Assembly (NCBI GenBank): GCA_002269645.1
Contig: NIVC01001215.1
Coordinates: 270,625 to 334,624 of the forward strand
Origin: Macrostomum lignano
Taxonomy: Eukaryota
DNA length: 64,000 nucleotides
Direction: 5' to 3'
How positions within the stretch are numbered: position 1 is the first letter of the stretch; each line of letters opens with the position of its first letter. Below, one piece after another: positions 1 to 64,000 of this stretch. The notes beneath the pieces are model-generated. The model worked only from the letters and a program-made list of their open reading frames with translations. It made no database searches and was not told the DNA's origin. A program made the translations under genes and the position numbers.

Positions 1-3000
1 CACCAGAGACCTCAGTTCACATGAGACCTCAGTTCACATGAGACCTCAGTTCACATGAGACCTCAGTTCACATGAGACCTCAGTTCACATGAGACCTCAG
101 TTCACATGAGACCTCAGTTCACCAGAGACCTCAGTTCACCAGAGACCTCAGTTCACATGAGACCTCAGTTCACCAGAGACCTCAGCATGGATATAGAGTT
201 CTCACATGAGACCTCAGTTCACATGAGACCTCAGTTCACCAGAGACCTCAGTTCACATGAGACCTCAGTTCACCAGAGACCTCAGTTCACATGAGACCTC
301 AGTTCACATGAGACCTCAGTTCACATGAGACCTCAGTTCACCAGAGACCTCAGTTCACATGAGACCTCAGTTCACCAGAGACCTCAGTTCACATGAGACC
401 TCAGTTCACATGAGACCTCAGTTCACATGAGACCTCAGTTCACCAGAGACCTCAGTTCACATGAGACCTCAGTTCACCAGAGACCTCAGCATGGATATAG
501 AGTTCTCACATGAGACCTCAGTTCACATGAGACCTCAGTTCACCAGAGACCTCAGTTCACATGAGACCTCAGTTCACCAGAGACCTCAGTTCACATGAGA
601 CCTCAGTTCACATGAGACCTCAGTTCACATGAGACCTCAGTTCACCAGAGACCTCAGTTCACCAGAGACCTCAGCATGGATATAGAGTTCTCACATGAGA
701 CCTCAGTTCACATGAGACCTCAGTTCACCAGAGACCTCAGTTCACATGAGACCTCAGTTCACCAGAGACCTCAGTTCACATGAGACCTCAGTTCACATGA
801 GACCTCAGTTCACATGAGACCTCAGTTCACCAGAGACCTCAGTTCACATGAGACCTCAGTTCACCAGAGACCTCAGCATGGATATAGAGTTCTCACATGA
901 GACCTCAGTTCACATGAGACCTCAGTTCACCAGAGACCTCAGTTCACATGAGACCTCAGTTCACATGAGACCTCAGTTCACCAGAGACCTCAGTTCACAT
1001 GAGACCTCAGTTCACATGAGACCTCAGTTCACATGAGACCTCAGTTCACCAGAGACCTCAGTTCACCAGAAACCTCAGTTCACATGAGACCTCAGTTCAC
1101 CAGAGACCTCAGTTCACATGAGACCTCAGTTCACATGAGACCTCAGTTCACATGAGACCTCAGTTCACATGAGACCTCAGTTCACCAGAGACCTCAGTTC
1201 ACCAGAGACCTCAGTTCACATGAGACCTCAGTTCACCAGAGACCTCAGCATGGATATAGAGTTCTCACATGAGACCTCAGTTCACATGAGACCTCAGTTC
1301 ACCAGAGACCTCAGTTCACATGAGACCTCAGTTCACCAGAGACCTCAGTTCACATGAGACCTCAGTTCACATGAGACCTCAGTTCACATGAGACCTCAGT
1401 TCACCAGAGACCTCAGTTCACATGAGACCTCAGTTCACCAGAGACCTCAGCATGGATATAGAGTTCTCACATGAGACCTCAGTTCACATGAGACCTCAGT
1501 TCACCAGAGACCTCAGTTCACATGAGACCTCAGTTCACCAGAGACCTCAGTTCACATGAGACCTCAGTTCACCAGAGACCTCAGTTCACCAGAGACCTCA
1601 GTTCACCAGAGACCTCAGTTCACCAGAGACCTCAGCATGGATATAGAGTTCTCACATGAGACCTCAGTTCACATGAGACCTCAGTTCACCAGAGACCTCA
1701 GTTCACATGAGACCTCAGTTCACCAGAGACCTCAGTTCACATGAGACCTCAGTTCACATGAGACCTCAGTTCACATGAGACCTCAGTTCACATGAGACCT
1801 CAGTTCACATGAGACCTCAGTTCACATGAGACCTCAGTTCACCAGAGACCTCAGCATGGATATAGAGTTCTCACATGAGACCTCAGTTCACATGAGACCT
1901 CAGTTCACCAGAGACCTCAGTTCACATGAGACCTCAGTTCACCAGAGACCTCAGTTCACAGAGACCTCAGTTCACATGAGACCTCAGTTCACATGAGACC
2001 TCAGTTCACATGAGACCTCAGTTCACCAGAGACCTCAGTTCACATGAGACCTCAGTTCACCAGAGACCTCAGTTCACATGAGACCTCAGTTCACCAGAGA
2101 CCTCAGCATGGATATAGAGTTCTCACATTAGACCTCAGTTCACATGAGACTTCAGTTCACCAGAGACCTCAGTTCACATGAGACCTCAGTTCACCAGAGA
2201 CCTCAGTTCACATGAGACCTCAGTTCACCAGAGACCTCAGCATGGATATAGAGTTCTCACATGAGACCTCAGTTCACATGAGACCTCAGTTCACATGAGA
2301 CCTCAGTTCACATGAGACCTCAGTTCACCAGAGACCTCAGTTCACATGAGACCTCAGTTCACCAGAGACCTCAGCATGGATATAGAGTTCTCACATGAGA
2401 CCTCAGTTCACATGAGACCTCAGTTCACATGAGACCTCAGTTCACCAGAGACCTCAGTTCACATGAGACCTCAGTTCACCAGAGACCTCAGTTCACATGA
2501 GACCTCAGTTCACCAGAGACCTCAGTTCACATGAGACCTCAGTTCACCAGAGACCTCAGTTCACATGAGACCTCAGTTCACATGAGACCTCAGTTCACAT
2601 GAGACCTCAGTTCACCAGAGACCTCAGTTCACATGAGACCTCAGTTCACCAGAGACCTCAGTTCACATGAGACCTCAGTTCACATGAGACCTCAGTTCAC
2701 ATGAGACCTCAGTTCACCAGAGACCTCAGTTCACATGAGACCTCAGTTCACCAGAGACCTCAGCATGGATATAGAGTTCTCACATGAGACCTCAGTTCAC
2801 ATGAGACCTCAGTTCACCAGAGACCTCAGTTCACATGAGACCTCAGTTCACCAGAGACCTCAGTTCACATGAGACCTCAGTTCACATGAGACCTCAGTTC
2901 ACATGAGACCTCAGTTCACATGAGACCTCAGTTCACCAGAGACCTCAGCATGGATATAGAGTTCTCACATGAGACCTCAGTTCACATGAGACCTCAGTTC

Positions 3001-6000
3001 ACCAGAGACCTCAGTTCACATGAGACCTCAGTTCACCAGAGACCTCAGTTCACATGAGACCTCAGTTCACATGAGACCTCAGTTCACATGAGACCTCAGT
3101 TCACCAGAGACCTCAGTTCACAGAGACCTCAGTTCACATGAGACCTCAGTTCACCAGAGACCTCAGCATGGATATAGAGTTCTCACATGAGACCTCAGTT
3201 CACATGAGACCTCAGTTCACCAGAGACCTCAGTTCACATGAGACCTCAGTTCACCAGAGACCTCAGTTCACATGAGACCTCAGTTCACATGAGACCTCAG
3301 TTCACATGAGACCTCAGTTCACAGAGACCTCAGTTCACATGAGACCTCAGTTCACCAGAGACCTCAGCATGGATATAGAGTTCTCACATGAGACCTCAGT
3401 TCACATGAGACCTCAGTTCACCAGAGACCTCAGTTCACATGAGACCTCAGTTCACCAGAGACCTCAGTTCACATGAGACCTCAGTTCACAGAGACCTCAG
3501 TTCACAGAGACCTCAGTTCACATGAGACCTCAGTTCACATGAGACCTCAGTTCACATGAGACCTCAGTTCACCAGAGACCTCAGCATGGATATAGAGTTC
3601 TCACATGAGACCTCAGTTCACATGAGACCTCAGTTCACCAGAGACCTCAGTTCACATGAGACCTCAGTTCACAGAGACCTCAGTTCACATGAGACCTCAG
3701 TTCACATGAGACCTCAGTTCACATGAGACCTCAGTTCACATGAGACCTCAGTTCACCAGAGACCTCAGCATGGATATAGAGTTCTCACATGAGACCTCAG
3801 TTCACATGAGACCTCAGTTCACCAGAGACCTCAGTTCACATGAGACCTCAGTTCACCAGAGACCTCAGTTCACATGAGACCTCAGTTCACCAGAGACCTC
3901 AGTTCACATGAGACCTCAGTTCACCAGAGACCTCAGTTCACCAGAGACCTCAGTTCACATGAGACCTCAGTTCACATGAGACCTCAGTTCACATGAGACC
4001 TCAGTTCACCAGAGACCTCAGTTCACATGAGACCTCAGTTCACCAGAGACCTCAGTTCACATGAGACCTCAGTTCACCAGAGACCTCAGCATGGATATAG
4101 AGTTCTCACATGAGACCTCAGTTCACATGAGACCTCAGTTCACCAGAGACCTCAGTTCACATGAGACCTCAGTTCACCAGAGACCTCAGTTCACATGAGA
4201 CCTCAGTTCACATGAGACCTCAGCATGGATATAGAGTTCTCACATGAGACCTCAGTTCACATGAGACCTCAGTTCACATGAGACCTCAGTTCACCAGAGA
4301 CCTCAGTTCACCAGAGACCTCAGTTCACATGAGACCTCAGTTCACCAGAGACCTCAGCATGGATATAGAGTTCTCACATGAGACCTCAGTTCACATGAGA
4401 CCTCAGTTCACATGAGACCTCAGTTCACATGAGACCTCAGTTCACATGAGACCTCAGTTCACCAGAGACCTCAGTTCACATGAGACCTCAGTTCACCAGA
4501 GACCTCAGTTCACATGAGACCTCAGTTCACCAGAGACCTCAGCATGGATATAGAGTTCTCACATGAGACCTCAGTTCACATGAGACCTCAGTTCACCAGA
4601 GACCTCAGTTCACATGAGACCTCAGTTCACCAGAGACCTCAGTTCACATGAGACCTCAGTTCACCAGAGACCTCAGCATGGATATAGAGTTCTCACATGA
4701 GACCTCAGTTCACATGAGACCTCAGTTCACCAGAGACCTCAGTTCACATGAGACCTCAGTTCACCAGAGACCTCAGTTCACATGAGACCTCAGTTCACCA
4801 GAGACCTCAGCATGGATATAGAGTTCTCACATGAGACCTCAGTTCACATGAGACCTCAGTTCACATGAGACCTCAGTTCACCAGAGACCTCAGTTCACAT
4901 GAGACCTCAGTTCACCAGAGACCTCAGCATGGATATAGAGTTCTCACATGAGACCTCAGTTCACCAGAGACCTTAGCATGGATATAGAGTTCTCACATGA
5001 GACCTCAGTTCACATGAGACCTCAGTTCACCAGAGACCTCAGTTCACATGAGACCTCAGTTCACCAGAGACCTCAGTTCACATGAGACCTCAGTTCACCA
5101 GAGACCTCAGCATGGATATAGAGTTCTCACATGAGACCTCAGTTCACATGAGACCTCAGTTCACCAGAGACCTCAGTTCACATGAGACCTCAGTTCACCA
5201 GAGACCTCAGTTCACATGAGACCTCAGTTCACCAGAGACCTCAGCATGGATATAGAGTTCTCACATGAGACCTCAGTTCACATGAGACCTCAGTTCACAT
5301 GAGACCTCAGTTCACAGAGACCTCAGTTCACCAGAGACCTCAGTTCACATGAGACCTCAGTTCACCAGAGACCTCAGCATGGATATAGAGTTCTCACATG
5401 AGACCTCAGTTCACATGAGACCTCAGTTCACATGAGACCTCAGTTCACCAGAGACCTCAGTTCACATGAGACCTCAGTTCACCAGAGACCTCAGTTCACA
5501 TGAGACCTCAGTTCACCAGAGACCTCAGTTCACATGAGACCTCAGTTCACCAGAGACCTCAGCATGGATATAGAGTTCTCACATGAGACCTCAGTTCACA
5601 TGAGACCTCAGTTCACCAGAGACCTCAGTTCACATGAGACCTCAGTTCACCAGAGACCTCAGTTCACATGAGACCTCAGTTCACCAGAGACCTCAGCATG
5701 GATATAGAGTTCTCACATGAGACCTCAGTTCACATGAGACCTCAGTTCACCAGAGACCTCAGTTCACATGAGACCTCAGTTCACCAGAGACCTCAGTTCA
5801 CATGAGACCTCAGTTCACCAGAGACCTCAGCATGGATATAGAGTTCTCACATGAGACCTCAGTTCACATGAGACCTCAGTTCACATGAGACCTCAGTTCA
5901 CATGAGACCTCAGTTCACCAGAGACCTCAGTTCACATGAGACCTCAGTTCACCAGAGACCTCAGCATGGATATAGAGTTCTCACATGAGACCTCAGTTCA

Positions 6001-9000
6001 CCAGAGACCTCAGCATGGATATAGAGTTCTCACATGAGACCTCAGTTCACATGAGACCTCAGTTCACCAGAGACCTCAGTTCACATGAGACCTCAGTTCA
6101 CCAGAGACCTCAGCATGGATATAGAGTTCTCACATGAGACCTCAGTTCACCAGAGACCTTAGCATGGATATAGAGTTCTCACATGAGACCTCAGTTCACA
6201 TGAGACCTCAGTTCACCAGAGACCTCAGTTCACATGAGACCTCAGTTCACCAGAGACCTCAGTTCACATGAGACCTCAGTTCACCAGAGACCTCAGCATG
6301 GATATAGAGTTCTCACATGAGACCTCAGTTCACATGAGACCTCAGTTCACCAGAGACCTCAGTTCACATGAGACCTCAGTTCACCAGAGACCTCAGTTCA
6401 CATGAGACCTCAGTTCACCAGAGACCTCAGCATGGATATAGAGTTCTCACATGAGACCTCAGTTCACATGAGACCTCAGTTCACATGAGACCTCAGTTCA
6501 CAGAGACCTCAGTTCACCAGAGACCTCAGTTCACATGAGACCTCAGTTCACCAGAGACCTCAGCATGGATATAGAGTTCTCACATGAGACCTCAGTTCAC
6601 ATGAGACCTCAGTTCACATGAGACCTCAGTTCACCAGAGACCTCAGTTCACATGAGACCTCAGTTCACCAGAGACCTCAGTTCACATGAGACCTCAGTTC
6701 ACCAGAGACCTCAGTTCACATGAGACCTCAGTTCACCAGAGACCTCAGCATGGATATAGAGTTCTCACATGAGACCTCAGTTCACATGAGACCTCAGTTC
6801 ACCAGAGACCTCAGTTCACATGAGACCTCAGTTCACCAGAGACCTCAGTTCACATGAGACCTCAGTTCACCAGAGACCTCAGCATGGATATAGAGTTCTC
6901 ACATGAGACCTCAGTTCACATGAGACCTCAGTTCACCAGAGACCTCAGTTCACATGAGACCTCAGTTCACCAGAGACCTCAGTTCACATGAGACCTCAGT
7001 TCACCAGAGACCTCAGCATGGATATAGAGTTCTCACATGAGACCTCAGTTCACATGAGACCTCAGTTCACAGAGACCTCAGTTCACATGAGACCTCAGTT
7101 CACCAGAGACCTCAGTTCACATGAGACCTCAGTTCACCAGAGACCTCAGCATGGATATAGAGTTCTCACATGAGACCTCAGTTCACCAGAGACCTCAGCA
7201 TGGATATAGAGTTCACATGAGACCTCAGTTCACATGAGACCTCAGTTCACCAGAGACCTCAGTTCACATGAGACCTCAGTTCACCAGAGACCTCAGCATG
7301 GATATAGAGTTCTCACATGAGACCTCAGTTCACATGAGACCTCAGTTCACAGAGACCTCAGTTCACATGAGACCTCAGTTCACCAGAGACCTCAGTTCAC
7401 ATGAGACCTCAGTTCACCAGAGACCTCAGTTCACATGAGACCTCAGTTCACCAGAGACCTCAGCATGGATATAGAGTTCTCACATGAGACCTCAGTTCAC
7501 ATGAGACCTCAGTTCACCAGAGACCTCAGTTCACATGAGACCTCAGTTCACCAGAGACCTCAGTTCACATGAGACCTCAGTTCACATGAGACCTCAGTTC
7601 ACATGAGACCTCAGTTCACATGAGACCTCAGTTCACCAGAGACCTCAGCATGGATATAGAGTTCTCACATGAGACCTCAGTTCACATGAGACCTCAGTTC
7701 ACCAGAGACCTCAGTTCACATGAGACCTCAGTTCACCAGAGACCTCAGTTCACATGAGACCTCAGTTCACATGAGACCTCAGTTCACATGAGACCTCAGT
7801 TCACATGAGACCTCAGTTCACCAGAGACCTCAGTTCACATGAGACCTCAGTTCACCAGAGACCTCAGCACATGAGACCTCAGTTCACATGAGACCTCAGT
7901 TCACATGAGACCTCAGTTCACATGAGACCTCAGTTCACATGAGACCTCAGTTCACAGAGACCTCAGTTCACATGAGACCTCAGTTCACATGAGACCTCAG
8001 TTCACATGAGACCTCAGTTCACATGAGACCTCAGTTCACCAGAGACCTCAGTTCACATGAGACCTCAGTTCACAGAGACCTCAGTTCACATGAGACCTCA
8101 GTTCACATGAGACCTCAGTTCACATGAGACCTCAGTTCACATGAGACCTCAGTTCACCAGAGACCTCAGTTCACACAGAGACCTCAGTTCACATGAGACC
8201 TCAGTTCACAGAGACCTCAGTTCACATGAGACCTCAGTTCACATGAGACCTCAGTTCACATGAGACCTCAGTTCACATGAGACCTCAGTTCACATGAGAC
8301 CTCAGTTCACATGAGACCTCAGTTCACCAGAGACCTCAGTTCACATGAGACCTCAGTTCACATGAGACCTCAGTTCACCAGAGACCTCAGTTCACATGAG
8401 ACCTCAGTTCACCAGAGACCTCAGTTCACATGAGACCTCAGTTCACATGAGACCTCAGTTCACCAGAGACCTCAGTTCACATGAGACCTCAGTTCACCAG
8501 AGACCTCAGCATGGATCTCACATGAGACCTCAGTTCACATGAGACCTCAGTTCACCAGAGACCTCAGTTCACATGAGACCTCAGTTCACCAGAGACCTCA
8601 GTTCACATGAGACCTCAGTTCACATGAGACCTCAGTTCACATGAGACCTCAGTTCACATGAGACCTCAGTTCACATGAGACCTCAGTTCACCAGAGACCT
8701 CAGTTCACATGAGACCTCAGTTCACCAGAGACCTCAGCATGGATCACATGAGACCTCAGTTCACATGAGACCTCAGTTCACCAGAGACCTCAGTTCACAT
8801 GAGACCTCAGTTCACAGAGACCTCAGTTCACAGAGACCTCAGTTCACATGAGACCTCAGTTCACATGAGACCTCAGTTCACATGAGACCTCAGTTCACCA
8901 GAGACCTCAGTTCACATGAGACCTCAGTTCACATGAGACCTCAGTTCACCAGAGACCTCAGTTCACATGAGACCTCAGTTCACCAGAGACCTCAGTTCAC

Positions 9001-12000
9001 ATGAGACCTCAGTTCACATGAGACCTCAGTTCACCAGAGACCTCAGTTCACATGAGACCTCAGTTCACCAGAGACCTCAGCATGGATATAGAGTTCTCAC
9101 ATGAGACCTCAGTTCACATGAGACCTCAGTTCACAGAGACCTCAGTTCACATGAGACCTCAGTTCACCAGAGACCTCAGTTCACCAGAGACCTCAGTTCA
9201 CATGAGACCTCAGTTCACATGAGACCTCAGTTCACATGAGACCTCAGTTCACCAGAGACCTCAGTTCACATGAGACCTCAGTTCACAGAGACCTCAGTTC
9301 ACATGAGACCTCAGTTCACAGAGACCTCAGCATGGATATAGAGTTCTCACATGAGACCTCAGTTCACATGAGACCTCAGTTCACCAGAGACCTCAGTTCA
9401 CATGAGACCTCAGTTCACCAGAGACCTCAGTTCACATGAGACCTCAGTTCACATGAGACCTCAGCATGGATATAGAGTTCTCACATGAGACCTCAGTTCA
9501 CATGAGACCTCAGTTCACATGAGACCTCAGTTCACATGAGACCTCAGTTCACCAGAGACCTCAGTTCACATGAGACCTCAGTTCACCAGAGACCTCAGCA
9601 TGGATATAGAGTTCTCACATGAGACCTCAGTTCACATGAGACCTCAGTTCACATGAGACCTCAGTTCACATGAGACCTCAGTTCACCAGAGACCTCAGTT
9701 CACATGAGACCTCAGTTCACCAGAGACCTCAGTTCACATGAGACCTCAGTTCACCAGAGACCTCAGTTCACATGAGACCTCAGTTCACCAGAGACCTCAG
9801 CATGGATATAGAGTTCACATGAGACCTCAGTTCACATGAGACCTCAGTTCACCAGAGACCTCAGTTCACATGAGACCTCAGTTCACCAGAGACCTCAGTT
9901 CACATGAGACCTCAGTTCACCAGAGACCTCAGCATGGATATAGAGTTCTCACATGAGACCTCAGTTCACATGAGACCTCAGTTCACCAGAGACCTCAGTT
10001 CACATGAGACCTCAGTTCACCAGAGACCTCAGTTCACATGAGACCTCAGTTCACCAGAGACCTCAGCATGGATATAGAGTTCTCACATGAGACCTCAGTT
10101 CACCAGAGACCTCAGTTCACATGAGACCTCAGTTCACATGAGACCTCAGTTCACAGAGACCTCAGTTCACCAGAGACCTCAGTTCACATGAGACCTCAGT
10201 TCACCAGAGACCTCAGCATCTCACATGAGACCTCAGTTCACCAGAGACCTCATGGATATAGAGTTCTCACATGAGACCTCAGTTCACATGAGACCTCAGT
10301 TCACCAGAGACCTCAGTTCACATGAGACCTCAGTTCACAGAGACCTCAGTTCACAGAGACCTCAGTTCACATGAGACCTCAGTTCACCAGAGACCTCAGC
10401 ATGGATATAGAGTTCTCACATGAGACCTCAGTTCACATGAGACCTCAGTTCACCAGAGACCTCAGTTCACATGAGACCTCAGTTCACCAGAGACCTCAGT
10501 TCACATGAGACCTCAGTTCACCAGAGACCTCAGCATGGATATAGAGTTCTCACATGAGACCTCAGTTCACATGAGACCTCAGTTCACATGAGACCTCAGT
10601 TCACATGAGACCTCAGTTCACCAGAGACCTCAGTTCACATGAGACCTCAGTTCACCAGAGACCTCAGCATGGATATAGAGTTCTCACATGAGACCTCAGT
10701 TCACATGAGACCTCAGTTCACATGAGACCTCAGTTCACCAGAGACCTCAGTTCACATGAGACCTCAGTTCACCAGAGACCTCAGTTCACATGAGACCTCA
10801 GTTCACCAGAGACCTCAGTTCACATGAGACCTCAGTTCACCAGAGACCTCAGCATGGATATAGAGTTCTCACATGAGACCTCAGTTCACATGAGACCTCA
10901 GTTCACCAGAGACCTCAGTTCACATGAGACCTCAGTTCACCAGAGACCTCAGTTCACATGAGACCTCAGTTCACCAGAGACCTCAGCATGGATATAGAGT
11001 TCTCACATGAGACCTCAGTTCACATGAGACCTCAGTTCACCAGAGACCTCAGTTCACATGAGACCTCAGTTCACCAGAGACCTCAGTTCACATGAGACCT
11101 CAGTTCACCAGAGACCTCAGCATGGATATAGAGTTCTCACATGAGACCTCAGTTCACATGAGACCTCAGTTCACATGAGACCTCAGTTCACCAGAGACCT
11201 CAGTTCACATGAGACCTCAGTTCACCAGAGACCTCAGCATGGATATAGATTCTCACATGAGACCTCAGTTCACAGAGACCTCAGCATGGATATAGAGTTC
11301 TCACATGAGACCTCAGTTCACATGAGACCTCAGTTCACCAGAGACCTCAGTTCACATGAGACCTCAGTTCACCAGAGACCTCAGCATGGATATAGAGTTC
11401 TCACATGAGACCTCAGTTCACATGAGACCTCAGTTCACATGAGACCTCAGTTCACATGAGACCTCAGTTCACCAGAGACCTCAGTTCACATGAGACCTCA
11501 GTTCACCAGAGACCTCAGTTCACATGAGACCTCAGTTCACATGAGACCTCAGCATGGATATAGAGTTCTCACATGAGACCTCAGTTCACATGAGACCTCA
11601 GTTCACTAGAGACCTCAGTTCACATGAGACCTCAGTTCACCAGAGACCTCAGTTCACATGAGACCTCAGTTCACATGAGACCTCAGTTCACATGAGACCT
11701 CAGTTCACCAGAGACCTCAGTTCACCAGAGACCTCAGCATGGATATAGAGTTCTCACATGAGACCTCAGTTCACATGAGACCTCAGTTCACCAGAGACCT
11801 CAGTTCACATGAGACCTCAGTTCACCAGAGACCTCAGTTCACATGAGACCTCAGTTCACATGAGACCTCAGTTCACATGAGACCTCAGTTCACATGAGAC
11901 CTCAGTTCACCAGAGACCTCAGTTCACATGAGACCTCAGTTCACCAGAGACCTCAGCATGGATATAGAGTTCTCACATGAGACCTCAGTTCACATGAGAC

Positions 12001-13480
12001 CTCAGTTCACCAGAGACCTCAGTTCACATGAGACCTCAGTTCACATGAGACCTCAGTTCACAGAGACCTCAGTTCACATGAGACCTCAGTTCACATGAGA
12101 CCTCAGTTCACATGAGACCTCAGTTCACCAGAGACCTCAGTTCACCAGAGACCTCAGTTCACATGAGACCTCAGTTCACCAGAGACCTCAGTTCACATGA
12201 GACCTCAGTTCACATGAGACCTCAGTTCACATGAGACCTCAGTTCACCAGAGACCTCAGTTCACCAGAGACCTCAGTTCACATGAGACCTCAGTTCACCA
12301 GAGACCTCAGCATGGATATAGAGTTCTCACATGAGACCTCAGTTCACATGAGACCTCAGTTCACCAGAGACCTCAGTTCACATGAGACCTCAGTTCACCA
12401 GAGACCTCAGTTCACATGAGACCTCAGTTCACATGAGACCTCAGTTCACATGAGACCTCAGTTCACCAGAGACCTCAGTTCACATGAGACCTCAGTTCAC
12501 CAGAGATCTCAGCATGGATATAGAGTTCTCACATGAGACCTCAGTTCACATGAGACCTCAGTTCACCAGAGACCTCAGTTCACATGAGACCTCAGTTCAC
12601 CAGAGACCTCAGTTCACATGAGACCTCAGTTCACTAGAGACCTCAGTTCACCAGAGACCTCAGTTCACATGAGACCTCAGTTCACCAGAGACCTCAGCAT
12701 GGATATAGAGTTCTCACATGAGACCTCAGTTCACATGAGACCTCAGTTCACCAGAGACCTCAGTTCACATGAGACCTCAGTTCACCAGAGACCTCAGTTC
12801 ACATGAGACCTCAGTTCACATGAGACCTCAGTTCACATGAGACCTCAGTTCACATGAGACCTCAGTTCACATGAGACCTCAGTTCACCAGAGACCTCAGT
12901 TCACATGAGACCTCAGTTCACCAGAGACCTCAGCATGGATATAGAGTTCTCACATGAGACCTCAGTTCACATGAGACCTCAGTTCACCAGAGACCTCAGT
13001 TCACATGAGACCTCAGTTCACCAGAGACCTCAGTTCACCAGAGACCTCAGTTCACATGAGACCTCAGTTCACATGAGACCTCAGTTCACATGAGACCTCA
13101 GTTCACCAGAGACCTCAGCATGGATATAGAGTTCTCACATGAGACCTCAGTTCACATGAGACCTCAGTTCACCAGAGACCTCAGTTCACATGAGACCTCA
13201 GTTCACCAGAGACCTCAGTTCACATGAGACCTCAGTTCACCAGAGACCTCAGTTCACATGAGACCTCAGTTCACCAGAGACCTCAGCATGGATATAGAGT
13301 TCTCACATGAGACCTCAGTTCACCAGAGACCTCAGTTCACATGAGACCTCAGTTCACCAGAGACCTCAGTTCACCAGAGACCTCAGTTCACATGAGACCT
13401 CAGTTCACATGAGACCTCAGTTCACCAGAGACCTCAGTATGGATAGAGTTCTCACCTGAGATCTCAGCATGAAGTTCAGA
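1..13480. repeat. Satellite array of 17-bp monomers (A: CACATGAGACCTCAGTT; B: CACCAGAGACCTCAGTT) punctuated by a variant unit CATGGATATAGAGTTCT; runs off the left edge
   Basis: Read directly. The variant unit recurs at 117/134/151-bp spacing (e.g. 4541 to 4675 = 134 bp). The ORF track shows near-identical blocks 387 bp apart (1169/1556, 12231/12618). Confidence 0.98.
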
Positions 13481-53972: not shown

Positions 53973-54000
53973 GAAATTGCCGTCAGTAGTAGGGCGAATT

Positions 54001-54420
54001 ATGATACTGCCGCACTAGCACTGGCGAGATAGGCGGCAATGCAAATGTATAGGGAAAAATACACTGCGGAGATATGAGCCCTATCTCTGTGCATTGGGGA
54101 CGGCTAAGCACTGCAGAGATATGAGCTCTATCTCTGTGCATTGGGGACGGCTAAGCACTGCAGAGATATGAGCTCTATCTCTGTGCATTGGGGACGGCTA
54201 AGCACTGCAGAGATATGAGCTCTATCTCTGTGCATTGGGGACGGCTAAGCACTGCAGAGATATGAGCTCTATCTCTGTGCATTGGGGACGGCTAAGCACT
54301 GCGGAGATAGAGGCGATTCATGATACTGCCGCACTAGCGCTGGCGAGATAGGCGGCAAAAAGGATATAGGAAAAATACACTGCGGAGAGGATCCTATCTC
54401 TGTGCATTGGGAACGGCTAA
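54001..54420. repeat. Structured subterminal region of the Polinton: two ~40-bp direct repeats (ATGATACTGCCGCACTAGC.CTGGCGAGATAGGCGGCAA at 54001 and 54320) around about 5 copies of a 47-bp unit
   Basis: GATATGAG at 54071, 54118, 54165, 54212, 54259. Confidence 0.88.
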
Positions 54421-54759
54421 ACATTGCAGAGATAAGAGGGGTGGCCAATCTCTGTGCTCTGTGTTAGGGTAAGGTTATAAAGTTTTACAACTGCACAGAG
54501 GACGGCTGGTGTTGCTTACCTGGATAAGGGGACGGGGGGATACACTAATTACAGCCAGTGGCCTCTATAACGGTAAAGTAATTATTACCTGAGCATGGCT
54601 GGATGTTCATATACGATATGATAAGGAGAGGGCATGCATGTACAAATTACTATATAAGCAGCCACGCAAGTACAAATAAACAAATAGACAAAAACAAATT
54701 GTATAAAAGGATTTTTAAAAACCTTACTACTTCTAAAAAACAACTCTTTCTCTTTCAAA

Positions 54760-56178
54760 ATGAAAACTTTTAAAAGTTGTCATAGAGACCTCTATGAGGT
54801 CTGTATAAGCTGCGAAGTGTGCCTGCTTGGAGGCGTGTCCCCAAGACACCACGAGAATGAGAACTGTCTGGTCTCATGCTGGTTGGCATGCGACCAGTGC
54901 GGCACCGTCGAAGCTCTGCAGGAGGGAAAAATTCCAGCATATCATCGAGGACACAAGATCGTCAGCGATGACAAGAAAAAGCAAGAAAGTAACCGCTGGA
55001 AAGTAATCCGCGCCATCAAAAAGAGCAACGAGAGAGAAAAGAAGAGCCAGCAGAAAAAGGGAGCCAGCAGGAGTCTGCTATCAGCTCACTTGAGTCAAGT
55101 AATTGACTCTACATTGAAGAGGATGAGGCCAAGCGGGTCTTCAGCAGCTGCAGAATTTGAAGTTGAGCTGTCTGCTGGAGTCGAGGCTGCTGGAGTCGAG
55201 GCTGCTGGAGTCGAGGCCGCTGGAGTCGAGGCTGCTGGAGTCGAGGCTGCTGGAGTCGAGGCTGCTGGAGTCGAGGCCGCTGGAGTCGAGGCTGCTGGAG
55301 TCGAGGCTGCTGGAGTCGAGGCTGCTGCTGTCATAAACTTCATAGAGGAAGATGTCCTGGATCAGTTCCTCAGGGAATTCAACGCTGGTCAGCAGCAGCA
55401 GCAGCAGCAACCTGTCTCTTCGGTTCCGGTGATTGCTGGAAAACAACTTCATCTAATTGAAGACGACCACGAAATGGAAATCCTAGAAGAGGAGGGCAGC
55501 GACAATGAGTCGCATAATGCAATTGTGCCACCTGCAGCTCCAGCCGCCCCAGCTGCTCTGGCCGCCCCAGCTGCTCTGGCCGCCCCAGCTGCTCTGGCCG
55601 CCCCAGCTGCTCTGGCCGCCCCAGCTGCTCTGGCCGCCCCAGCTGCTCCAGCCGCCCCAGCTGCTCTGGCCGCCCCAGCTGCTCCAGCCGCCCCAGCTGC
55701 TCTGGCCGCCCCAGCTGCTCTGGCCGCCCCAGCTGCTCTGTCCGCCCCAGCTGCTCTGTCCGCCCCAGCTGCTCTGGCCGCCCCAGCTGCTCTGGCCGCC
55801 CCAGCTGCTCTGGCCGCCCCAGCTGCTCCAGCCGCCCCAGCTGCTCTGGCCGCCCCAGCTGCTCTGGCCGCCCCAGCTGCTCTGGCCGCCCCAGCTGCTC
55901 TGGCCGCCCCAGCTGCTCTGGCTGCCCCAGCTGCTCCAGCCGCCCCAGCTGCTCTGGCCGCCCCAGCTGCTCCAGCCGCCCCAGCTGCTCTGGCCGCCCC
56001 AGCTGCTCTGGCTGCCCCAGCTGCTCCAGCCGCCCCAGCTGCAGCCTCTACAATTCCAGCTTCTCAATCCGAAACTCCACCCGTGCCAGCTGGAGTTGCC
56101 TTCTTTCTGCCTCCTGTCGGCGGGGCTGGGTACGAGGTAACGATTTTCGAAAATCGTATTAGAATTGTGCCGCTGTGA
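54760..56178 (+). CDS. Polinton accessory ORF (472 aa): Cys/His-rich N-terminus, basic segment, in-frame (AAGVE)n, poly-Q and (AAP-AAL)n expansions; function unknown
   Basis: ATG in CAAAATG context, TATATAA at about 54652; non-repetitive N- and C-terminal parts; repeat units of 15 and 18 bp keep the frame. Confidence 0.65.
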   Translation: MKTFKSCHRDLYEVCISCEVCLLGGVSPRHHENENCLVSCWLACDQCGTVEALQEGKIPAYHRGHKIVSDDKKKQESNRWKVIRAIKKSNEREKKSQQKKGASRSLLSAHLSQVIDSTLKRMRPSGSSAAAEFEVELSAGVEAAGVEAAGVEAAGVEAAGVEAAGVEAAGVEAAGVEAAGVEAAGVEAAAVINFIEEDVLDQFLREFNAGQQQQQQQPVSSVPVIAGKQLHLIEDDHEMEILEEEGSDNESHNAIVPPAAPAAPAALAAPAALAAPAALAAPAALAAPAALAAPAAPAAPAALAAPAAPAAPAALAAPAALAAPAALSAPAALSAPAALAAPAALAAPAALAAPAAPAAPAALAAPAALAAPAALAAPAALAAPAALAAPAAPAAPAALAAPAAPAAPAALAAPAALAAPAAPAAPAAASTIPASQSETPPVPAGVAFFLPPVGGAGYEVTIFENRIRIVPL

Positions 56179-57062: not shown

Positions 57063-60000
57063 ATGGTTGAGCACTCCTGGATGGAGCAGGAGAATGACCA
57101 CTCATGGATGGAGAATGACCACTCATGGATGGAGAATGACCACTCATGGATGGAGAATGACCACTCATGGATGGAGAATGGCCACTCGTGGATGGAGGAT
57201 GACCACTCGTGGATCGAGTATGACCACCCTTGGGTGGACCATGACGTCAGCAGCGAGTCAGCAGCCAGCAGCGAGTCGGCAGCCAGCAGCGAGTCAGCAG
57301 CCAGCAGCGAGTCAGCAGCCAGCAGCGAGTCAGCAGCCAGCAGCGAGTCAGCAGCCAGCAGCGAGTCAGCAGCCAGCAGCGAGTCAGCAGCCAGCAGCGA
57401 GTCAGCAGCCAACAGCGAGTCGGTGACTGATGCACACCAAGGTAAGTGCCTTTATTTATCCTTTTCAACTTACTTAAAAATTTTCTTATCAATGCGATGT
57501 ATATTATGCAGTCTAAAATTTTAGTCCAAAGAATGGGAGAAGGGGAGATAAAAGACTTTATACCGGTAGGGTTGTACATGTATGCTTGGGTACAGACGTT
57601 TAGTTTAGTATCTTTGATATTTGAAACTATAGGCAGCAAAAAACAAAAATATTATCCTAAAACCACAAACCAGGTTCAACAGTCAGCTTCAGCAGAGTTG
57701 CCCAAGCCTATGATCAATCACTGGAAATACTGAGGCTCAGATCGAGTCACCCAGACACGCTTCCGTCAGAATTTTTTGTCCAAGCTGGAGACAAAATTAT
57801 TGAGGCAGTTCAGCAAAGAATTTCAAGACATCATTACAAAGTTCAGCTAAAGGCGAATATTCGAATGGTCCGAATAAGAGATGGGGAGATGCTTGCCGAA
57901 GAGGACAGATGGATAAGCTGTAAAATGCAGGCCCTAGACCTAGGTGGTGAAGCAGGCCGTTTAAACAACTGGTTGATTGAGCAGGAGCAGGAGTTGGAGA
58001 GGATCTGTAGTATGATTAATACGAACGGCAGTGGCTGGACAATTAAACAAATTAATTTTCTAGACATCAACCTTGCCAGGTACAATCCAATTCGATTTCG
58101 CCAGGGCAGAGCCGTTAGATTCAATCTTCCTGCCAGTTTGAAGAACAAAAAGGCTGTTATCAATCCACCGAGCACAGGCAAAGACTGTTTCCTGTACGCC
58201 TGTCTCGCTGCACTGCACAGCGCCGATCCGAAAGTTCAGAAATCGCCCAACAGAATATCCTCTTACGATGAATGGTTGCGTGAGCTGGACTTTGCAGAAA
58301 TCTCCATGCCAGTGAGTGTCGCTGATATCGATCGCGTCGAGTCTAACAATCCAGGAATTTGCATTTCTGCGTTCTCTTGGCAGCAGGGCAGTGTGACTCT
58401 TCTCCGTCGCCGCAAGCATGAGTCAGATGACCGAAGACACCTCATGCTTTTGCTAGTTAAAGACAGCTACGGATCGGAGCACTGGTGTGCAATTACTAAT
58501 TTTGACAGGTTAATGAACAGTCGTAATGGTCCCGCCATGAGGAAGTGGTGCACGAAATGTTTAACATCATTTTATAGCAACGAGAGGCTTCAAGAGCACA
58601 GGAACGAATGCAGCATTACTGCAGAAAATCCTGTCAAAGAAACGCTTCCAGTTCCAGGACAGAATGAAATAAAGTTCCGAAACTGTCAAAACACTGTCAG
58701 TCCACCATTCGTTGCCTATGCCGACCTGGAAGCCATTTTGCGAGCGAACACAGACCCTGCTAACCTGATCTCAAAGCATGAACCATGTGCAGCAGCTTTT
58801 CTTGCAGTGCCTCGTGAAGGCATGACAGGACCTCCGCTTAGGCCAGAAGGAGACATGTACAAGGTCTTTTGCAATGCGGACCCTGATGAGTGTATCCTTG
58901 GTTTTCTCAAATCTCTTGAAAGCCTGGCTCAGGATATATTTCACTGGAACCAGAAGCATAGCCACCAGCCGGCTGACCGATCATCCGCGACCGTCATGGA
59001 TGATTTCAATTCTGCTGAGGTATGTCACTACTGCAAGAAGAACTTTAAAAGTTCTACAGATAAACATTTTGACCACGATCATTTAAATGGACAGTACAAA
59101 GGTGCAGCATGTCAAGAATGCAACCTGCGAGCACAGCTCCGACGCCGGTTTCTGCCCCTGGTTTTTCACAACTTAGGCGGCTACGACCTTCATCTTCTAC
59201 TTTCCACTGCGCTTGGGAGCATGAAAAATTGGAAACTTAGTGTTGTTCCGCAATCATCCGAGCGATACTTGTCACTAAGGGCGGAATTCCCTGTTGCAAG
59301 TTACGTAAAGAACGGAAAAGTTGTGCCAATCATGTTTACAATTCAGTTCATCGACTCGCTCTGCTTTTTGAAGGGAAGTTTGTCCAATTTGTTTGCTAAT
59401 CTTCCCGAAGCTGAATGCAAGCTGACAATGCAAATGCTTGAGTCAAGACCACATCTTTCAAGAGAGCTACTTCGAAAAAAAGGGATTTTCCCATATGATT
59501 ACCTCACAGGATTTGAGATTCTCGAGCAGTCGGTTTTGCCGCCTAAAGATGCTTTTTTTAATCGACTTTCCGATCGGGGAATTTCCGACGACGACTACAA
59601 TAGAGCAAGAGCGGCATGGGCGGCATTTCAATGCAAAAGTTTGAAGGATTATATGCTCGCCTATCTTGAAATGGATGTAAGGCAGCTGGCTGACATTTTC
59701 GAGACATTCCGACAGGCCAGTCTGAAAGAGGACGGATTGGATCCGGTACACTACTTTACTACTCCTGGTTTGTCTTACGACTCAGCTCTAAAGTCGACTG
59801 GAGTGGTTCTAGAGCAGCTGACTGATGCTGACATGTATCATCTGTTTGAGAAGGGAATACGAGGAGGCATGTCCTTCATTAATGTGCATTGCGTCAAAGG
59901 TAATAATCCTAGCTTGCCAGGTTATGATGATCAGCAAGAGAGTGTAAGCCTCATGCCGATCGATATGAACAACTTGTATGGCTTTGCCCTGTCGCTTCCG

Positions 60001-61323
60001 CTTCCATGCAGGGAATTCAGGTGGGTACCGGAACAGGAAATCCAGTTCTGGGACTCCAATCGGTTTCTGTCACTCAATCCAGAAGCCGAGATCGCCTACC
60101 TTGTTCAACTCGATCTAGAATACCCAGCTGAGATTCACGATTCGACTCAGGAGTTACCGTTTGCACCTGAAAAATCAAAACCACAGCCAGATCAATTCTC
60201 GCCGTACATGGCCGAACTATGGAAAGAGATTGCTGAACAGCGAACTGGCAATGCTGAAGCTAAGTTTCAAGCAACGGAGAAGCTTCTACTCACCTGTACC
60301 GACAAGGATTCTTACGTAGTTCACAGCACCGTTTTAAGATTTTACCTGCAACACGGAATGCGGATCAAGTGCGTCAAAAAAATGATTTCGTTCAAGCAGG
60401 AAAATATTTTCGCGCCGTACATTGCCAGCAACAATGAAAAAAGAGCTTTGGCAACTTCCGAGTTTGCTAAGGATTTTTACAAATTGAAAAACAATTCTCT
60501 CTTTGGAAAAACTATGGAGAACGTTCGAAAAAGATGCGATGTTCGAATTTGCACTAACCAGACTCAAGCAGAAACTTGCGCCTCTCGACCAAACTGTGCC
60601 GCATTCTCGATTATCAATGAGTCGTTGAGCATTTTTCAGCTCAAAAAAGATAAAGTCACGCTTGACAAGGCCATTTTCGTTGGCCAGGCAGTTCTCGATC
60701 TCTCTAAGATGGCCATGTACAGCCTACTATATGACAGGCTCCGACCGCTGTTCTGTCATTCAGACGGTTCCAGAGACATGATGCTTTGCGGAGGTGATAC
60801 TGACTCATTTTTTCTAGCTTTCAAGAATCATGATTTAACATCGGAGGTAATCCCGAAGCTTAGAGAGGAAAAAATACTTGACACATCCAACTATTCTCGA
60901 GACCATCCGCATTTCTCTGAAGAGTTAAAAGGAAAGCTGGGCTGCGTTAAAGATGAATCTGCTGGTGGAATTTACCAGGAGTGGATTCTTTTGCGTCCAA
61001 AACTTTATTCGTTTCTCCCTGCCGAGAATTCGAGTGCAAAGATCAAGAAAACTGCCAAAGGCGTGAAGCAGTCAGTAGTAAGACAGCAAATTTCGCATGC
61101 GAACTATGTCGACGCGTTCGAGTCCAAGCAAGAGCAGATGGTTGCCATGACAGCGATTGTTTCCAAGAAACACGAAATCTTCACGTCGGTCATGGAGAAA
61201 AGAAGCCTATCGGTGTGGGAGGATAAGCGAGTGTGGCTTAGCAGTAATCGAAGCCTGCCCTACGGACACTATGCGCTGACGCCCGCATCCCACGATCAGC
61301 TGAAGCGCATCCGACTGGTCTAG
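57063..61323 (+). CDS. polB: Protein-primed family B DNA polymerase (pPolB) with N-terminal TP/OTU-like region, C2H2-like finger and endonuclease VII-like insert; predicted 2 exons (57063-57441, 57674-61323; 1342 aa)
   Basis: ExoI YADLEAIL, ExoII FHNLGGYDLH, ExoIII YLEMDV, PolA DMNNLYG, PolB KLKNNSLFGK, PolC GGDTDS; GSGW..INPPSTGKDCFLYA..EHW N-terminal motifs typical of Polinton PolB. The main ORF is certain; the first exon is inferred. Confidence 0.95.
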
Positions 61324-61905: not shown

Positions 61906-62478
61906 TTATTCAATGGAAAGAACTACATTGAGTAGACGCATGCTATCGGTATGCAACTGATTCAAGGACCGAGCTCCACTGAGAACAAAAGAGCCGCTGT
62001 GAAAAAGCAGACATTTACAAAAGTTTAAATTGAAAATTAAAGCAGAAAAGGATTCTGGTTCATATTCGGCGTTTGGGATAATTGATTTTAACATTAATAA
62101 GGAAAGTGCGGAATGAACTGGGAGCTGTCCATGAGCAGTAATAGTTTTAATTCGAACACAAATTGTTTGATGAGGCAGCAGTTGAGCCGGCACTCTCCGA
62201 TGCAGCATAGCCACGAAGCGACGGGCAGCCCTTTTGGCGTCTGCGTGGGTCTTGGCACCGCAGATGCTCAGTTGCCCAGTAGGGTAGAGTAGGAGAGTCA
62301 CTCTGGGAATCCGCATCCGCTTGATGAGCACCCGGGGCCAGACGGGCCGGTAGATCACATGAGCCATGCTGAGAGCCAGTTCCCGTAGAGGCAGCTGAGC
62401 GCCCCTGCCACCATCCAGTCTCAGATCTACTCCGCCAACCAGATTGGTCACTCTTAGGGCTGTAGCTGGTGGGCTCAT
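61906..62478 (-). CDS. Divergent TATA-binding protein (TBP)-fold protein (190 aa from ATG 62478)
   Basis: Two TBP repeats: VTNLVG..IYRP..RVTLLLYPTGQLSICGAKTHADAKRAARRF (cf. QNIVS..[33 protein letters not shown]) and AEYEPESFSALIF..LLFHSGSFVLSGARS (cf. SYEPELFPGLIY..LIFVSGKVVLTGAK). Confidence 0.88.
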   Translation of the reverse strand: MSPPATALRVTNLVGGVDLRLDGGRGAQLPLRELALSMAHVIYRPVWPRVLIKRMRIPRVTLLLYPTGQLSICGAKTHADAKRAARRFVAMLHRRVPAQLLPHQTICVRIKTITAHGQLPVHSALSLLMLKSIIPNAEYEPESFSALIFNLNFCKCLLFHSGSFVLSGARSLNQLHTDSMRLLNVVLSIE

Positions 62479-62998
62479 TTCGATCGTCAACTTCTTCACC
62501 AAATCTGCTTCTGCCAACTTTACTGCTCGTGTGCCACGGACACTGCTCGCTTCTTAAGTTGATGCAGAACTTTGGCTTAAGCCAACTGTAGTGCAGCAAC
62601 GAATTTCTCACTGCACAGCCAGTATCTGAATCTTCAGTCGAGGGTGCTCCCAAATCTTCTAGGTTATAAACCTGTCTTCCAAGCAGCTCAGTCAGAAAAA
62701 TCGACTTCCTTTCCCCATTTGACCAGATCGGACCACTGGCAATGCTCAGAATGTCTTCCGCCAGTTCCATGTACGGACGGGTTCCATCATTCCACTTAAA
62801 CTGGTGCAGACTCTTAGATAGCTGTCTGTAGTAAACTCGCATGTCAGGTGAGACTCTCTCCCATGGATACGGAGGTGCGTACACATGGTGAGCAATGTGG
62901 TAGCTCCCCGCTCTGATTTGAACAACTGCCAACTCCTTCACAACAAATTTTTTGCTTGTGCTGTTGCACGGGAATCCTTGGAAGTCAATGTAGTTCAT
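62147..62998 (-). CDS. Polinton-type accessory protein with predicted RNase H/DEDD exonuclease-like fold; conserved core about 62998-62570, C-terminal tail overlaps the TBP-like gene
   Basis: IDFQGF..FVVKELA..YAPPYPW..HQFKWNDG..Y..NGERK..VYNLEDLGAP..CAVRN..W matches the pattern I recognise from Polinton/Maverick small ORFs. The fold assignment is inference. Confidence 0.65.
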   Translation of the reverse strand: MNYIDFQGFPCNSTSKKFVVKELAVVQIRAGSYHIAHHVYAPPYPWERVSPDMRVYYRQLSKSLHQFKWNDGTRPYMELAEDILSIASGPIWSNGERKSIFLTELLGRQVYNLEDLGAPSTEDSDTGCAVRNSLLHYSWLKPKFCINLRSEQCPWHTSSKVGRSRFGEEVDDRNEPTSYSPKSDQSGWRSRSETGWWQGRSAASTGTGSQHGSCDLPARLAPGAHQADADSQSDSPTLPYWATEHLRCQDPRRRQKGCPSLRGYAASESAGSTAASSNNLCSN

Positions 62999-63718
62999 GA
63001 TGCAGCTTTCCTTCGAAAATTTCGGAGTCAGTCCACTTCTTATATACTTTTCTGGCAGGCAATTTCAGCCAGGCTGTGTTGCTCCCGTACCCCTTGACTA
63101 GACTCTCCTGTTCTTTCTCCAGTTCACCCCCTCTGCTGGTTGCCATTTTCTTCTTAACTGATTTACCAACAGCGGAAAGCGGAACATTAAGCTTTTTCTG
63201 CTGCAGAAAATCGATGAACTCGTTCCACCCAACTGGTTCACGCTCACATGGCGAATCCCTCACTGTGTGCTGAATCAAGTCCAGTATGTTTGAGGAAGGG
63301 ATTGACGTGCCTGCGATTTCCACCTCCCCGTTTTCACAAACTCGAATCAGCTCTGGATTGGTGGACAGGATCGTCCACAGACTGCGAGCCCTGGTTTTGA
63401 ATTTCTGTGGCACCGACTTGCTGATCTTCTCTTCCCAGGTGCTTATCTGGGTGTCTCTGTTTTCATCAACTTGGCTTCAGTATTGCGTGCTCCTTCTTTT
63501 CCAGCGTGCTTGCGCTTGGCCAGCAAACTTTGCATTGCACTTTGGTACATGGCGGTTTTCACATCTTCTGGACAATCCTCGGCATACAAGATGTCATCGC
63601 ATTTCTTCTGAGCCTGCTTCAAGTCAGCTTCAGTGGTAGTCTCATTTGGCTTCAAATTCTGCATCAACATCTCATACTCTGCTTTAGGAATCAGAACCAT
63701 TTCTGAAAATTTGTTCAT
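62985..63718 (-). CDS. Conserved Polinton accessory gene split by a 1-nt frameshift near 63445-63478 (ORFs 63718-63443 and 63477-62985)
   Basis: N-half MVLIP..IL..K..Y..Q.L and C-half ISKSVPQKFKTRARSL..GEV.I.G..I.SSNILDLI..PVGWNEF..L...NVP normally occur in one Polinton protein as I recall it. The second frame is open from just after TGA at 63480-63478. Confidence 0.6.
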
Positions 63719-64000
63719 TTTGCTTCTTCTTCTTTACCAGCTTAAGCAGAATCGGGAGTATTTTGATGAAGCCAGCCTTCAACAAGTCTGTCTTTCTTCT
63801 TTTGTGAGTAATTTTTCGAATTATCTCTTTTGACTTTGCAAGAACAGCTTTTTCATCGAGCGAAAACGATAGATTGTTTTGTAAGAGATTATGGCAGGCC
63901 TCGACAAGAAAATAACGCACTTCTTTTGGACAATTTTTTATCAACAGCCGCTTGAAGCGCACGGTATATTTAGGTGACGCAAGAACCGCAAAAAGACTTG
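63684..64000 (-). CDS. Small basic amphipathic Polinton/adintovirus protein (cupiennin-like, proposed membrane-active); start lies beyond the window edge
   Basis: EACHNLLQNN..EKAVLAKSKEIIRKI..KAGFIKILPILLKLV; frame open to position 64000. Confidence 0.6.
   Translation of the reverse strand, partial: SLFAVLASPKYTVRFKRLLIKNCPKEVRYFLVEACHNLLQNNLSFSLDEKAVLAKSKEIIRKITHKRRKTDLLKAGFIKILPILLKLVKKKKQNEQIFRNGSDS

Follow-up and report, generated by a model that had tools for sequence, protein, structure and literature searches.

A homologue of the TATA-binding protein (TBP), encoded at 61906..62478 (−) in a 64,000-nucleotide stretch of a Macrostomum lignano contig (the window), is a real and standard gene of two Polinton lineages of this flatworm, referred to here as lineages A and B. 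The element that carries it is an integrase-bearing Polinton/Maverick of ~17 kb with terminal inverted repeats (TIRs) and a 6-bp target duplication, and it encodes no RNA polymerase. There is about an even chance that the Maverick TBP is a late-promoter specificity factor which would recruit host TFIIB and RNA polymerase II (Pol II), a role suggested by its conserved residues and by a short word found upstream of most capsid-block genes.

Organization of the element

The contig of the window ends at base 64000, and the rest of the element and its right TIR were read from other copies. In the full copy C530, a ~330-bp repeat corresponding to window positions 53985..54312 (+), which starts with AGTAGT, was found at both ends, ~16.7 kb apart and with a 6-bp target duplication; this copy also confirmed that the TBP gene lies inside the TIRs. 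The original prediction had assigned the gene to a Polinton-like virus, a name which in its narrow sense does not apply, as the rve integrase, TIRs and target duplication identify a Polinton/Maverick. The gene order is TIR, ORF472, the protein-primed family B DNA polymerase (pPolB) and then, on the opposite strand, TBP, orf283, orf230 and orf112, followed by the ATPase, protease, major capsid, orf125, minor capsid, integrase and a PC4-like gene before the second TIR.

Pfam searches confirmed the pPolB, the rve integrase with chromodomain (PF00665 and PF00385 in copy C906), the adenain protease (PF00770) and PC4. The ATPase gave weak P-loop matches only, and the two capsid ORFs, which had no Pfam match, bear putative names given for their size, position and resemblance to known capsid genes. 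No TFIIB gene was detected in the Pfam scan of the ORFs of the element. ORF472 (54760..56178, +; 472 aa) is marked by paired Cys residues, a basic segment and repeats of low complexity, and lies behind TATATAAG at 54651; it is possible that it represents an early regulator. Its AAGVE and APAAL repeats vary in length among copies. On the other strand, the orf230 region (approximately 63029..63718, −) is a single 230-aa ORF in other copies with a broken frame in the window copy, and orf112 (63684..64000, −) is interrupted by the contig end.

The pPolB ORF (57865..61323, +; PF03175) has a product of 1152 aa when counted from the first ATG within the exon. Upstream of it, at 57063..57673 (+), lie an exon (57063-57441) and a 232-nt GT-AG intron (57442-57673), the removal of which joins this exon in frame to pPolB according to a frame test. 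The region is covered by four sequencing runs that may be RNA, and loose contig ends in two of these, from different studies (X2 and X10), map to this intron. Spliced pPolB transcripts thus exist for the element family, without being attributable to the window copy. The upstream exon also encodes HSWMEND and SSESAA repeats. Far from the element, the first 13 kb of the window (1-13000) contain no long ORF and are very even in composition (GC 0.48, with unchanging skew); they are probably a tandem satellite array.

Identity and fold of the Maverick TBP

The 190-aa product consists of two repeats without an N-terminal extension. It was matched by Pfam PF00352 in two stretches with 87 bits (cut-off 22.9), and 35 of the 36 matches of a PDB sequence search were TBP-containing chains (best E 2e-18). 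An AlphaFold2 model built with a 15-row alignment reached a pLDDT of 90.2, and a fold search with it gave TM scores of 0.77-0.82 against free-standing solved TBPs and of at most 0.72 against predicted viral proteins. With both repeats above the curated cut-off and a saddle fold, the protein belongs to the TBP family, and the intact two-repeat TBP that had been proposed from the reading frame alone is borne out. All motifs named in that proposal (TNLV, YRPVW, LLY, KTIT, YEPESF and LLF) are present in the translation. The nearest database protein is itself labelled Macrostomum lignano. The gene was also described as intronless; it is a single ORF, but this state is uninformative on its origin because the host TBP, located elsewhere in the genome, is likewise one ORF (218 aa).

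The two-repeat saddle is common to the Maverick TBP and cellular TBPs (PF00352; PDB 1mp9, 1cdw and 1qn3), including the host TBP and TRF2-like protein, and the model is closer to these (TM ~0.8) than to the viral proteins. It differs from cellular TBPs in its low identity to them (24-29%), in the missing N-terminal tail and in its location on a mobile element.

Conserved and altered surfaces

Residues E140, P141, E142, F144 and F159 are invariant in all 15 rows of the alignment. In the Arabidopsis thaliana TBP, E144 and E146 are given as TFIIB contacts, and F148 and F165 are the equivalents of F144 and F159 (PMC10005294). E140 and E142 align with the two A. thaliana glutamates in a comparison of sequences only. 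The YEPExF stirrup and the second Phe pair, both shared with cellular TBPs, are retained, and the C-terminal stirrup with its predicted TFIIB-binding glutamates is therefore kept. Among the positions of the four intercalating Phe, F144 and F159 are kept, Y65 is a conservative replacement and Pro48 occupies the first position. The claim that the first-repeat Phe residues had become Trp and Tyr thus holds for Y65, while the other site is Pro48 in an ungapped alignment to the host TBP. W47 was considered as a substitute for the first Phe and rejected, as it lies one residue earlier and is His in lineage B.

Two symmetric Asn residues have a role on the DNA face of TBP, and nearby valines exclude G-C pairs. 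The first, N12, is invariant as in cellular TBPs, and the second position is an invariant Thr (T112), in agreement with the predicted loss of the second Asn. The invariant changes on the DNA face in the 15-row alignment comprise C73, K111, T112, K155 and R49; C73 replaces a strand Thr of cellular TBPs, and the invariance of R49 and K155 is new. The saddle residues N12, V14, T61, L63, Y65, F144 and F159 are invariant or nearly so. Because the changes on the DNA face are fixed, it is suggested that DNA binding is altered rather than lost, although it may be weak with a Pro in place of the first intercalating Phe. The stirrup of repeat 1, which in TBP is a TFIIA surface, differs from that of cellular TBPs and shows no conservation, and the proposed role as a decoy for TFIIA is for this reason less likely.

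Distribution among Polinton copies

At least 152 protein matches to the TBP were found in the genome, 25 of which, the window's included, were full-length and identical among the matches listed. The genome assembly may contain haplotype duplicates, and the number of matches is for this reason not a copy number. The lineage B TBP is ~38% identical to that of lineage A, is represented by 21 stop-free matches with at least 90% identity to the lineage B query, and sits in a gene block similar to that of lineage A. The gene is accordingly present in other copies of both lineages, and its position was the same in all ten compared copies with long flanks. Nineteen capsid-side stretches without a listed TBP were also inspected: two held a TBP, seven reached the contig end first, eight were truncated or interrupted and two had deletions which removed TBP together with three neighbours. 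Loss of TBP alone was seen in none of these 19 stretches.

Two further Polinton families were found in the same genome via PF21738 (L132-L151, e.g. G000 C2232, C2068 and C1293). No TBP was detected with three profiles in ten stretches of these families, which were of up to 20 kb and in some cases shorter than a whole element. The stretches covered of the C2068 and C1293 family yielded no integrase. TBP is hence standard in two lineages and not across all Polintons of this genome.

Some copies are 97-98% identical through the end of repeat 1 of TBP and only 56-70% identical in repeat 2; their pPolBs, where read, share 47-49% identity with the pPolB of C906. The breakpoint lies at ~62130-62150, the boundary between the TBP repeats, with near-identical capsid blocks on one side and several differing modules of repeat 2 and pPolB on the other. 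As the capsid side is alike and the repeat 2 and pPolB side divergent, it follows that crossovers at the repeat boundary have shuffled the halves of TBP. A separate rearrangement was observed in L126 and L127 (G000 C2301 and C3189), where two element halves meet at an inverted junction, one break falling at residue 114 of TBP and the other within the ATPase.

Origin and selection

A quick tree of 155 rows was constructed, nine sequences (chimeric, duplicated, partial or redundant) having been omitted beforehand and four more being too short. This tree placed lineages A and B on one branch (SH-aLRT 96) apart from the host TBP and from the TRF2-like gene, which is also located elsewhere in the genome. 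Given the long branches, any deeper placement is tentative; the nearest neighbours are unnamed short TBPs which have the Asn-to-Thr change in common with the Maverick proteins. Relatives of 30-76% identity were present in Logan, ENA and JGI assemblies. A metagenome scan with the Maverick TBP alignment (A1) returned 32 loci, none with a Polinton gene, and scans of viral contigs gave no match for this alignment, the major capsid protein or pPolB. A locus matched by the alignment of the neighbouring short TBPs belongs to a large DNA virus. An IMG/VR contig (L112), a stretch of a large DNA virus, encodes a TBP, a split family B polymerase, a ribonucleotide reductase and a heliorhodopsin, and is mirusvirus-like by its gene content.

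The Maverick TBP is under purifying selection. In a comparison of 10 of 21 sequences, each of the 36 lineage A pairs had a pN lower than its pS, in repeat 1 as well as in repeat 2 (repeat 1, pS 0.03-0.49 and pN 0.009-0.13; repeat 2, pS 0.61-0.86 and pN 0.12-0.34). A recent host TBP capture, for instance as a retrocopy, or an unselected passenger is scarcely credible in view of these values, the 29% identity to the host TBP, the separate and well-supported branch, and the relatives in unrelated metagenome assemblies; nothing beyond the intronless state of the host TBP speaks for it.

The overlapping reading frame of orf283

The predicted overlap of TBP with a neighbouring ORF was confirmed, 332 nt being shared with orf283 (62147..62998, −; 283 aa), which has a ~150-aa N-terminal domain and a tail that spans the whole of TBP repeat 1 in a different frame. 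In 19 of the 20 loci retrieved, this frame continues into TBP without a stop for 106-128 codons. For the 13 of 21 sequences tested, the probability of such an open frame with the TBP protein kept constant was 0.0004-0.023 per sequence, values to be read in light of a span picked post hoc and of sequences that are related. Changes within the overlap are silent for TBP and alter the orf283 product. The tail was rejected as a conserved protein domain, as its amino acids drift while those of TBP stay, and selection seems to act on its openness and not on its sequence. At a guess, translation of orf283 and TBP might be coupled.

A Pfam search with orf283 gave no match. Atlas matches to its N-terminal domain were unnamed eukaryotic, arthropod-rich clusters together with a weak hint of Maelstrom (0.88), so that a DEDD/Maelstrom-like domain is put forward as a lead only. 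The domain carries DFQG in lineage A and DFEG in lineage B.

A candidate late promoter word and a PC4-like gene

In the window and copy C906, canonical TATATAA boxes lie ahead of ORF472, PC4 and orf283. The box before orf283, TATATAAGAA at 63037..63046 (−), also includes the word TAAGAA. Upstream of TBP, a candidate late-promoter word, CTTAAGAA (62551..62558, −), lies 80 nt before the ATG, with a second CTTAAG at 62576-62581 (−), and another CTTAAG precedes orf230 at 63741..63746 (−). In the 8.35-kb block of C906, eight CTTAAG sites were observed against 1.5-3.1 expected: one before each of integrase, minor capsid, major capsid, ATPase, orf112 and orf230 and two before TBP. All eight fall within upstream windows, which make up 13% of the block, and in three other copies the counts were 5/5, 5/6 and 8/8. 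For lineage B, TAAGA was within upstream windows in five of seven and four of seven cases. At places permitted by the codons in three copies, TAAGAA was present at 13 of 26 near starts and 6 of 72 elsewhere (Fisher p 2e-5), such p-values being optimistic since the word was selected on the same data, two starts were shifted to internal Met codons and the copies are related.

The word upstream of the integrase is retained in four unrelated non-coding flanks. One site includes the stop codon of the ATPase gene, and several sit in Lys/Arg-rich coding ends; the word is absent before the protease and orf125. In lineage B, the TBP gene lies behind TATAAAAG in place of the (C)TTAAGAA word, and the penton site is just 11 nt from the ATG. 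In the TBP-less Polinton families, TAAGA is ahead of ~1-2 of 8 core genes per copy among those listed, and the association of TBP with the word is thus one of two related lineages against two others. The word was rejected as a splice acceptor, having no pyrimidine tract, and as a poly(A) signal, not being AATAAA. TTAAGAA may also be readable by the host TBP itself.

A PC4/Sub1-like gene (PF02229) was found in both TBP-bearing lineages. In lineage A it lies past the contig end of the window (L029:2281-3054, copy C906) and scored 32.6 bits; in lineage B (L039:795-1433, copy C110) it scored 23 bits, below the cut-off of 25, and was present in all four copies read. The element PC4 also matches a solved PC4 structure. 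The positions and orientations of the gene differ between the two lineages, with a canonical TATA box ahead of each.

Proposed role and alternative explanations

A conserved TBP together with a shared word before most capsid-block genes makes it likely that the element steers the host polymerase to its late genes. It is proposed that the host TBP would first act on ORF472, PC4 and orf283 by reading their canonical TATATAA boxes. Once made from the orf283/TBP unit, the viral TBP would bind the variant word (C)TTAAGAA at the integrase, capsid and packaging genes and recruit host TFIIB and Pol II there, with the word ahead of its own gene providing positive feedback and PC4 possibly helping to open or stabilize the complex. 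The original prediction had suggested that host Pol II could be retargeted to viral promoters such as the TATATAA near 54652. That box exists, at 54651, but the promoter candidate is the word before the capsid-block genes, which lends indirect support to retargeting as such. The fuller proposal, in which a 17-kb integrating animal virus without an RNA polymerase makes its early-to-late switch by a specificity-shifted TBP and a PC4 homologue, the TBP acting in a sigma-like manner for Pol II on a private (C)TTAAGAA box that the host TBP reads poorly and having its C-terminal half swapped among lineages, is held tentatively, at a little under an even chance.

The TBP might instead be a general booster which supplies extra TBP activity on ordinary TATA-like sites, free of control by host TFIID and TFIIA, with TAAGAA being read by host factors or serving as an initiator. 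The canonical TATA boxes at the lineage B TBP gene and several other genes, and the coincidence of the word with the canonical box before orf283, would fit such a role. A TAAG initiator is known in baculovirus late genes and offers a precedent. Boosting would however need no substitutions on the DNA face, yet these persist unchanged between rows with identities down to 30%, and the word is rare in the TBP-less families, so this explanation is rather unlikely. A decoy or dominant negative, which would sequester host TFIIB or obstruct the TATA promoters of the host and thereby damp host transcription or defence, is less probable still: the invariant TFIIB stirrup and the loss of the repeat 1 stirrup and of the first Phe agree with it, but the mostly invariant saddle residues suggest retained DNA contact, the upstream word is left unexplained and the element's own spliced pPolB transcript requires host Pol II. 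It is improbable that the protein bends DNA in replication, packaging or integration without a part in transcription. In recombinants repeat 2 does move together with the pPolB-side module, but this linkage is accounted for by crossovers in the conserved repeat 1, and the invariant TFIIB-contact glutamates argue against a non-transcriptional role. The specificity factor for late promoters remains the preferred reading.

Comparison with known systems

The pPolB, the chromodomain-bearing rve integrase and the adenain protease, the putative ATPase and capsid genes, as well as the TIRs and 6-bp target duplication, are those of Polintons/Mavericks/adintoviruses (PMC8502044). Virus-encoded TBP-fold proteins are also found in giant viruses, mirusviruses and the haloviruses HJTV-2 and HRTV-9, but these have genomes of at least 75 kb, compared to ~17 kb for the Maverick, which encodes no RNA polymerase. 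Mirusviruses carry both a TBP and their own RNA polymerase (PMC10132985). In Starrett et al. (2021; PMC8502044), the legend of Figure 5, part of the section on non-animal datasets, lists TBP in an adintovirus-like element; the searchable text and text supplements of that paper do not name this element, nor do they describe a function, a PC4 gene or a promoter word for it. Within the text covered of the Polinton surveys PMC10748475, PMC11131425, PMC8097293 and PMC10120064, the terms TATA, TBP and PC4 did not occur (the spelling 'TATA-box-binding' lay outside these terms). The novelty claimed for a TBP in a Polinton is lowered by this legend and by the TBPs known from large viruses. What is added here is the PC4 gene in both lineages, the (C)TTAAGAA word, the TBP-less families mostly without this word, and the open overlapping frame.

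With a named factor, a putative target word and, as controls, families without TBP, all within one flatworm genome, the element described here makes it directly testable how Polintons, which lack an RNA polymerase, time the expression of their capsid and integration genes; the host is a laboratory flatworm with many intact, apparently transcribed copies. Fixed changes on the DNA face of a natural TBP would further help to understand the rewiring of TATA specificity.
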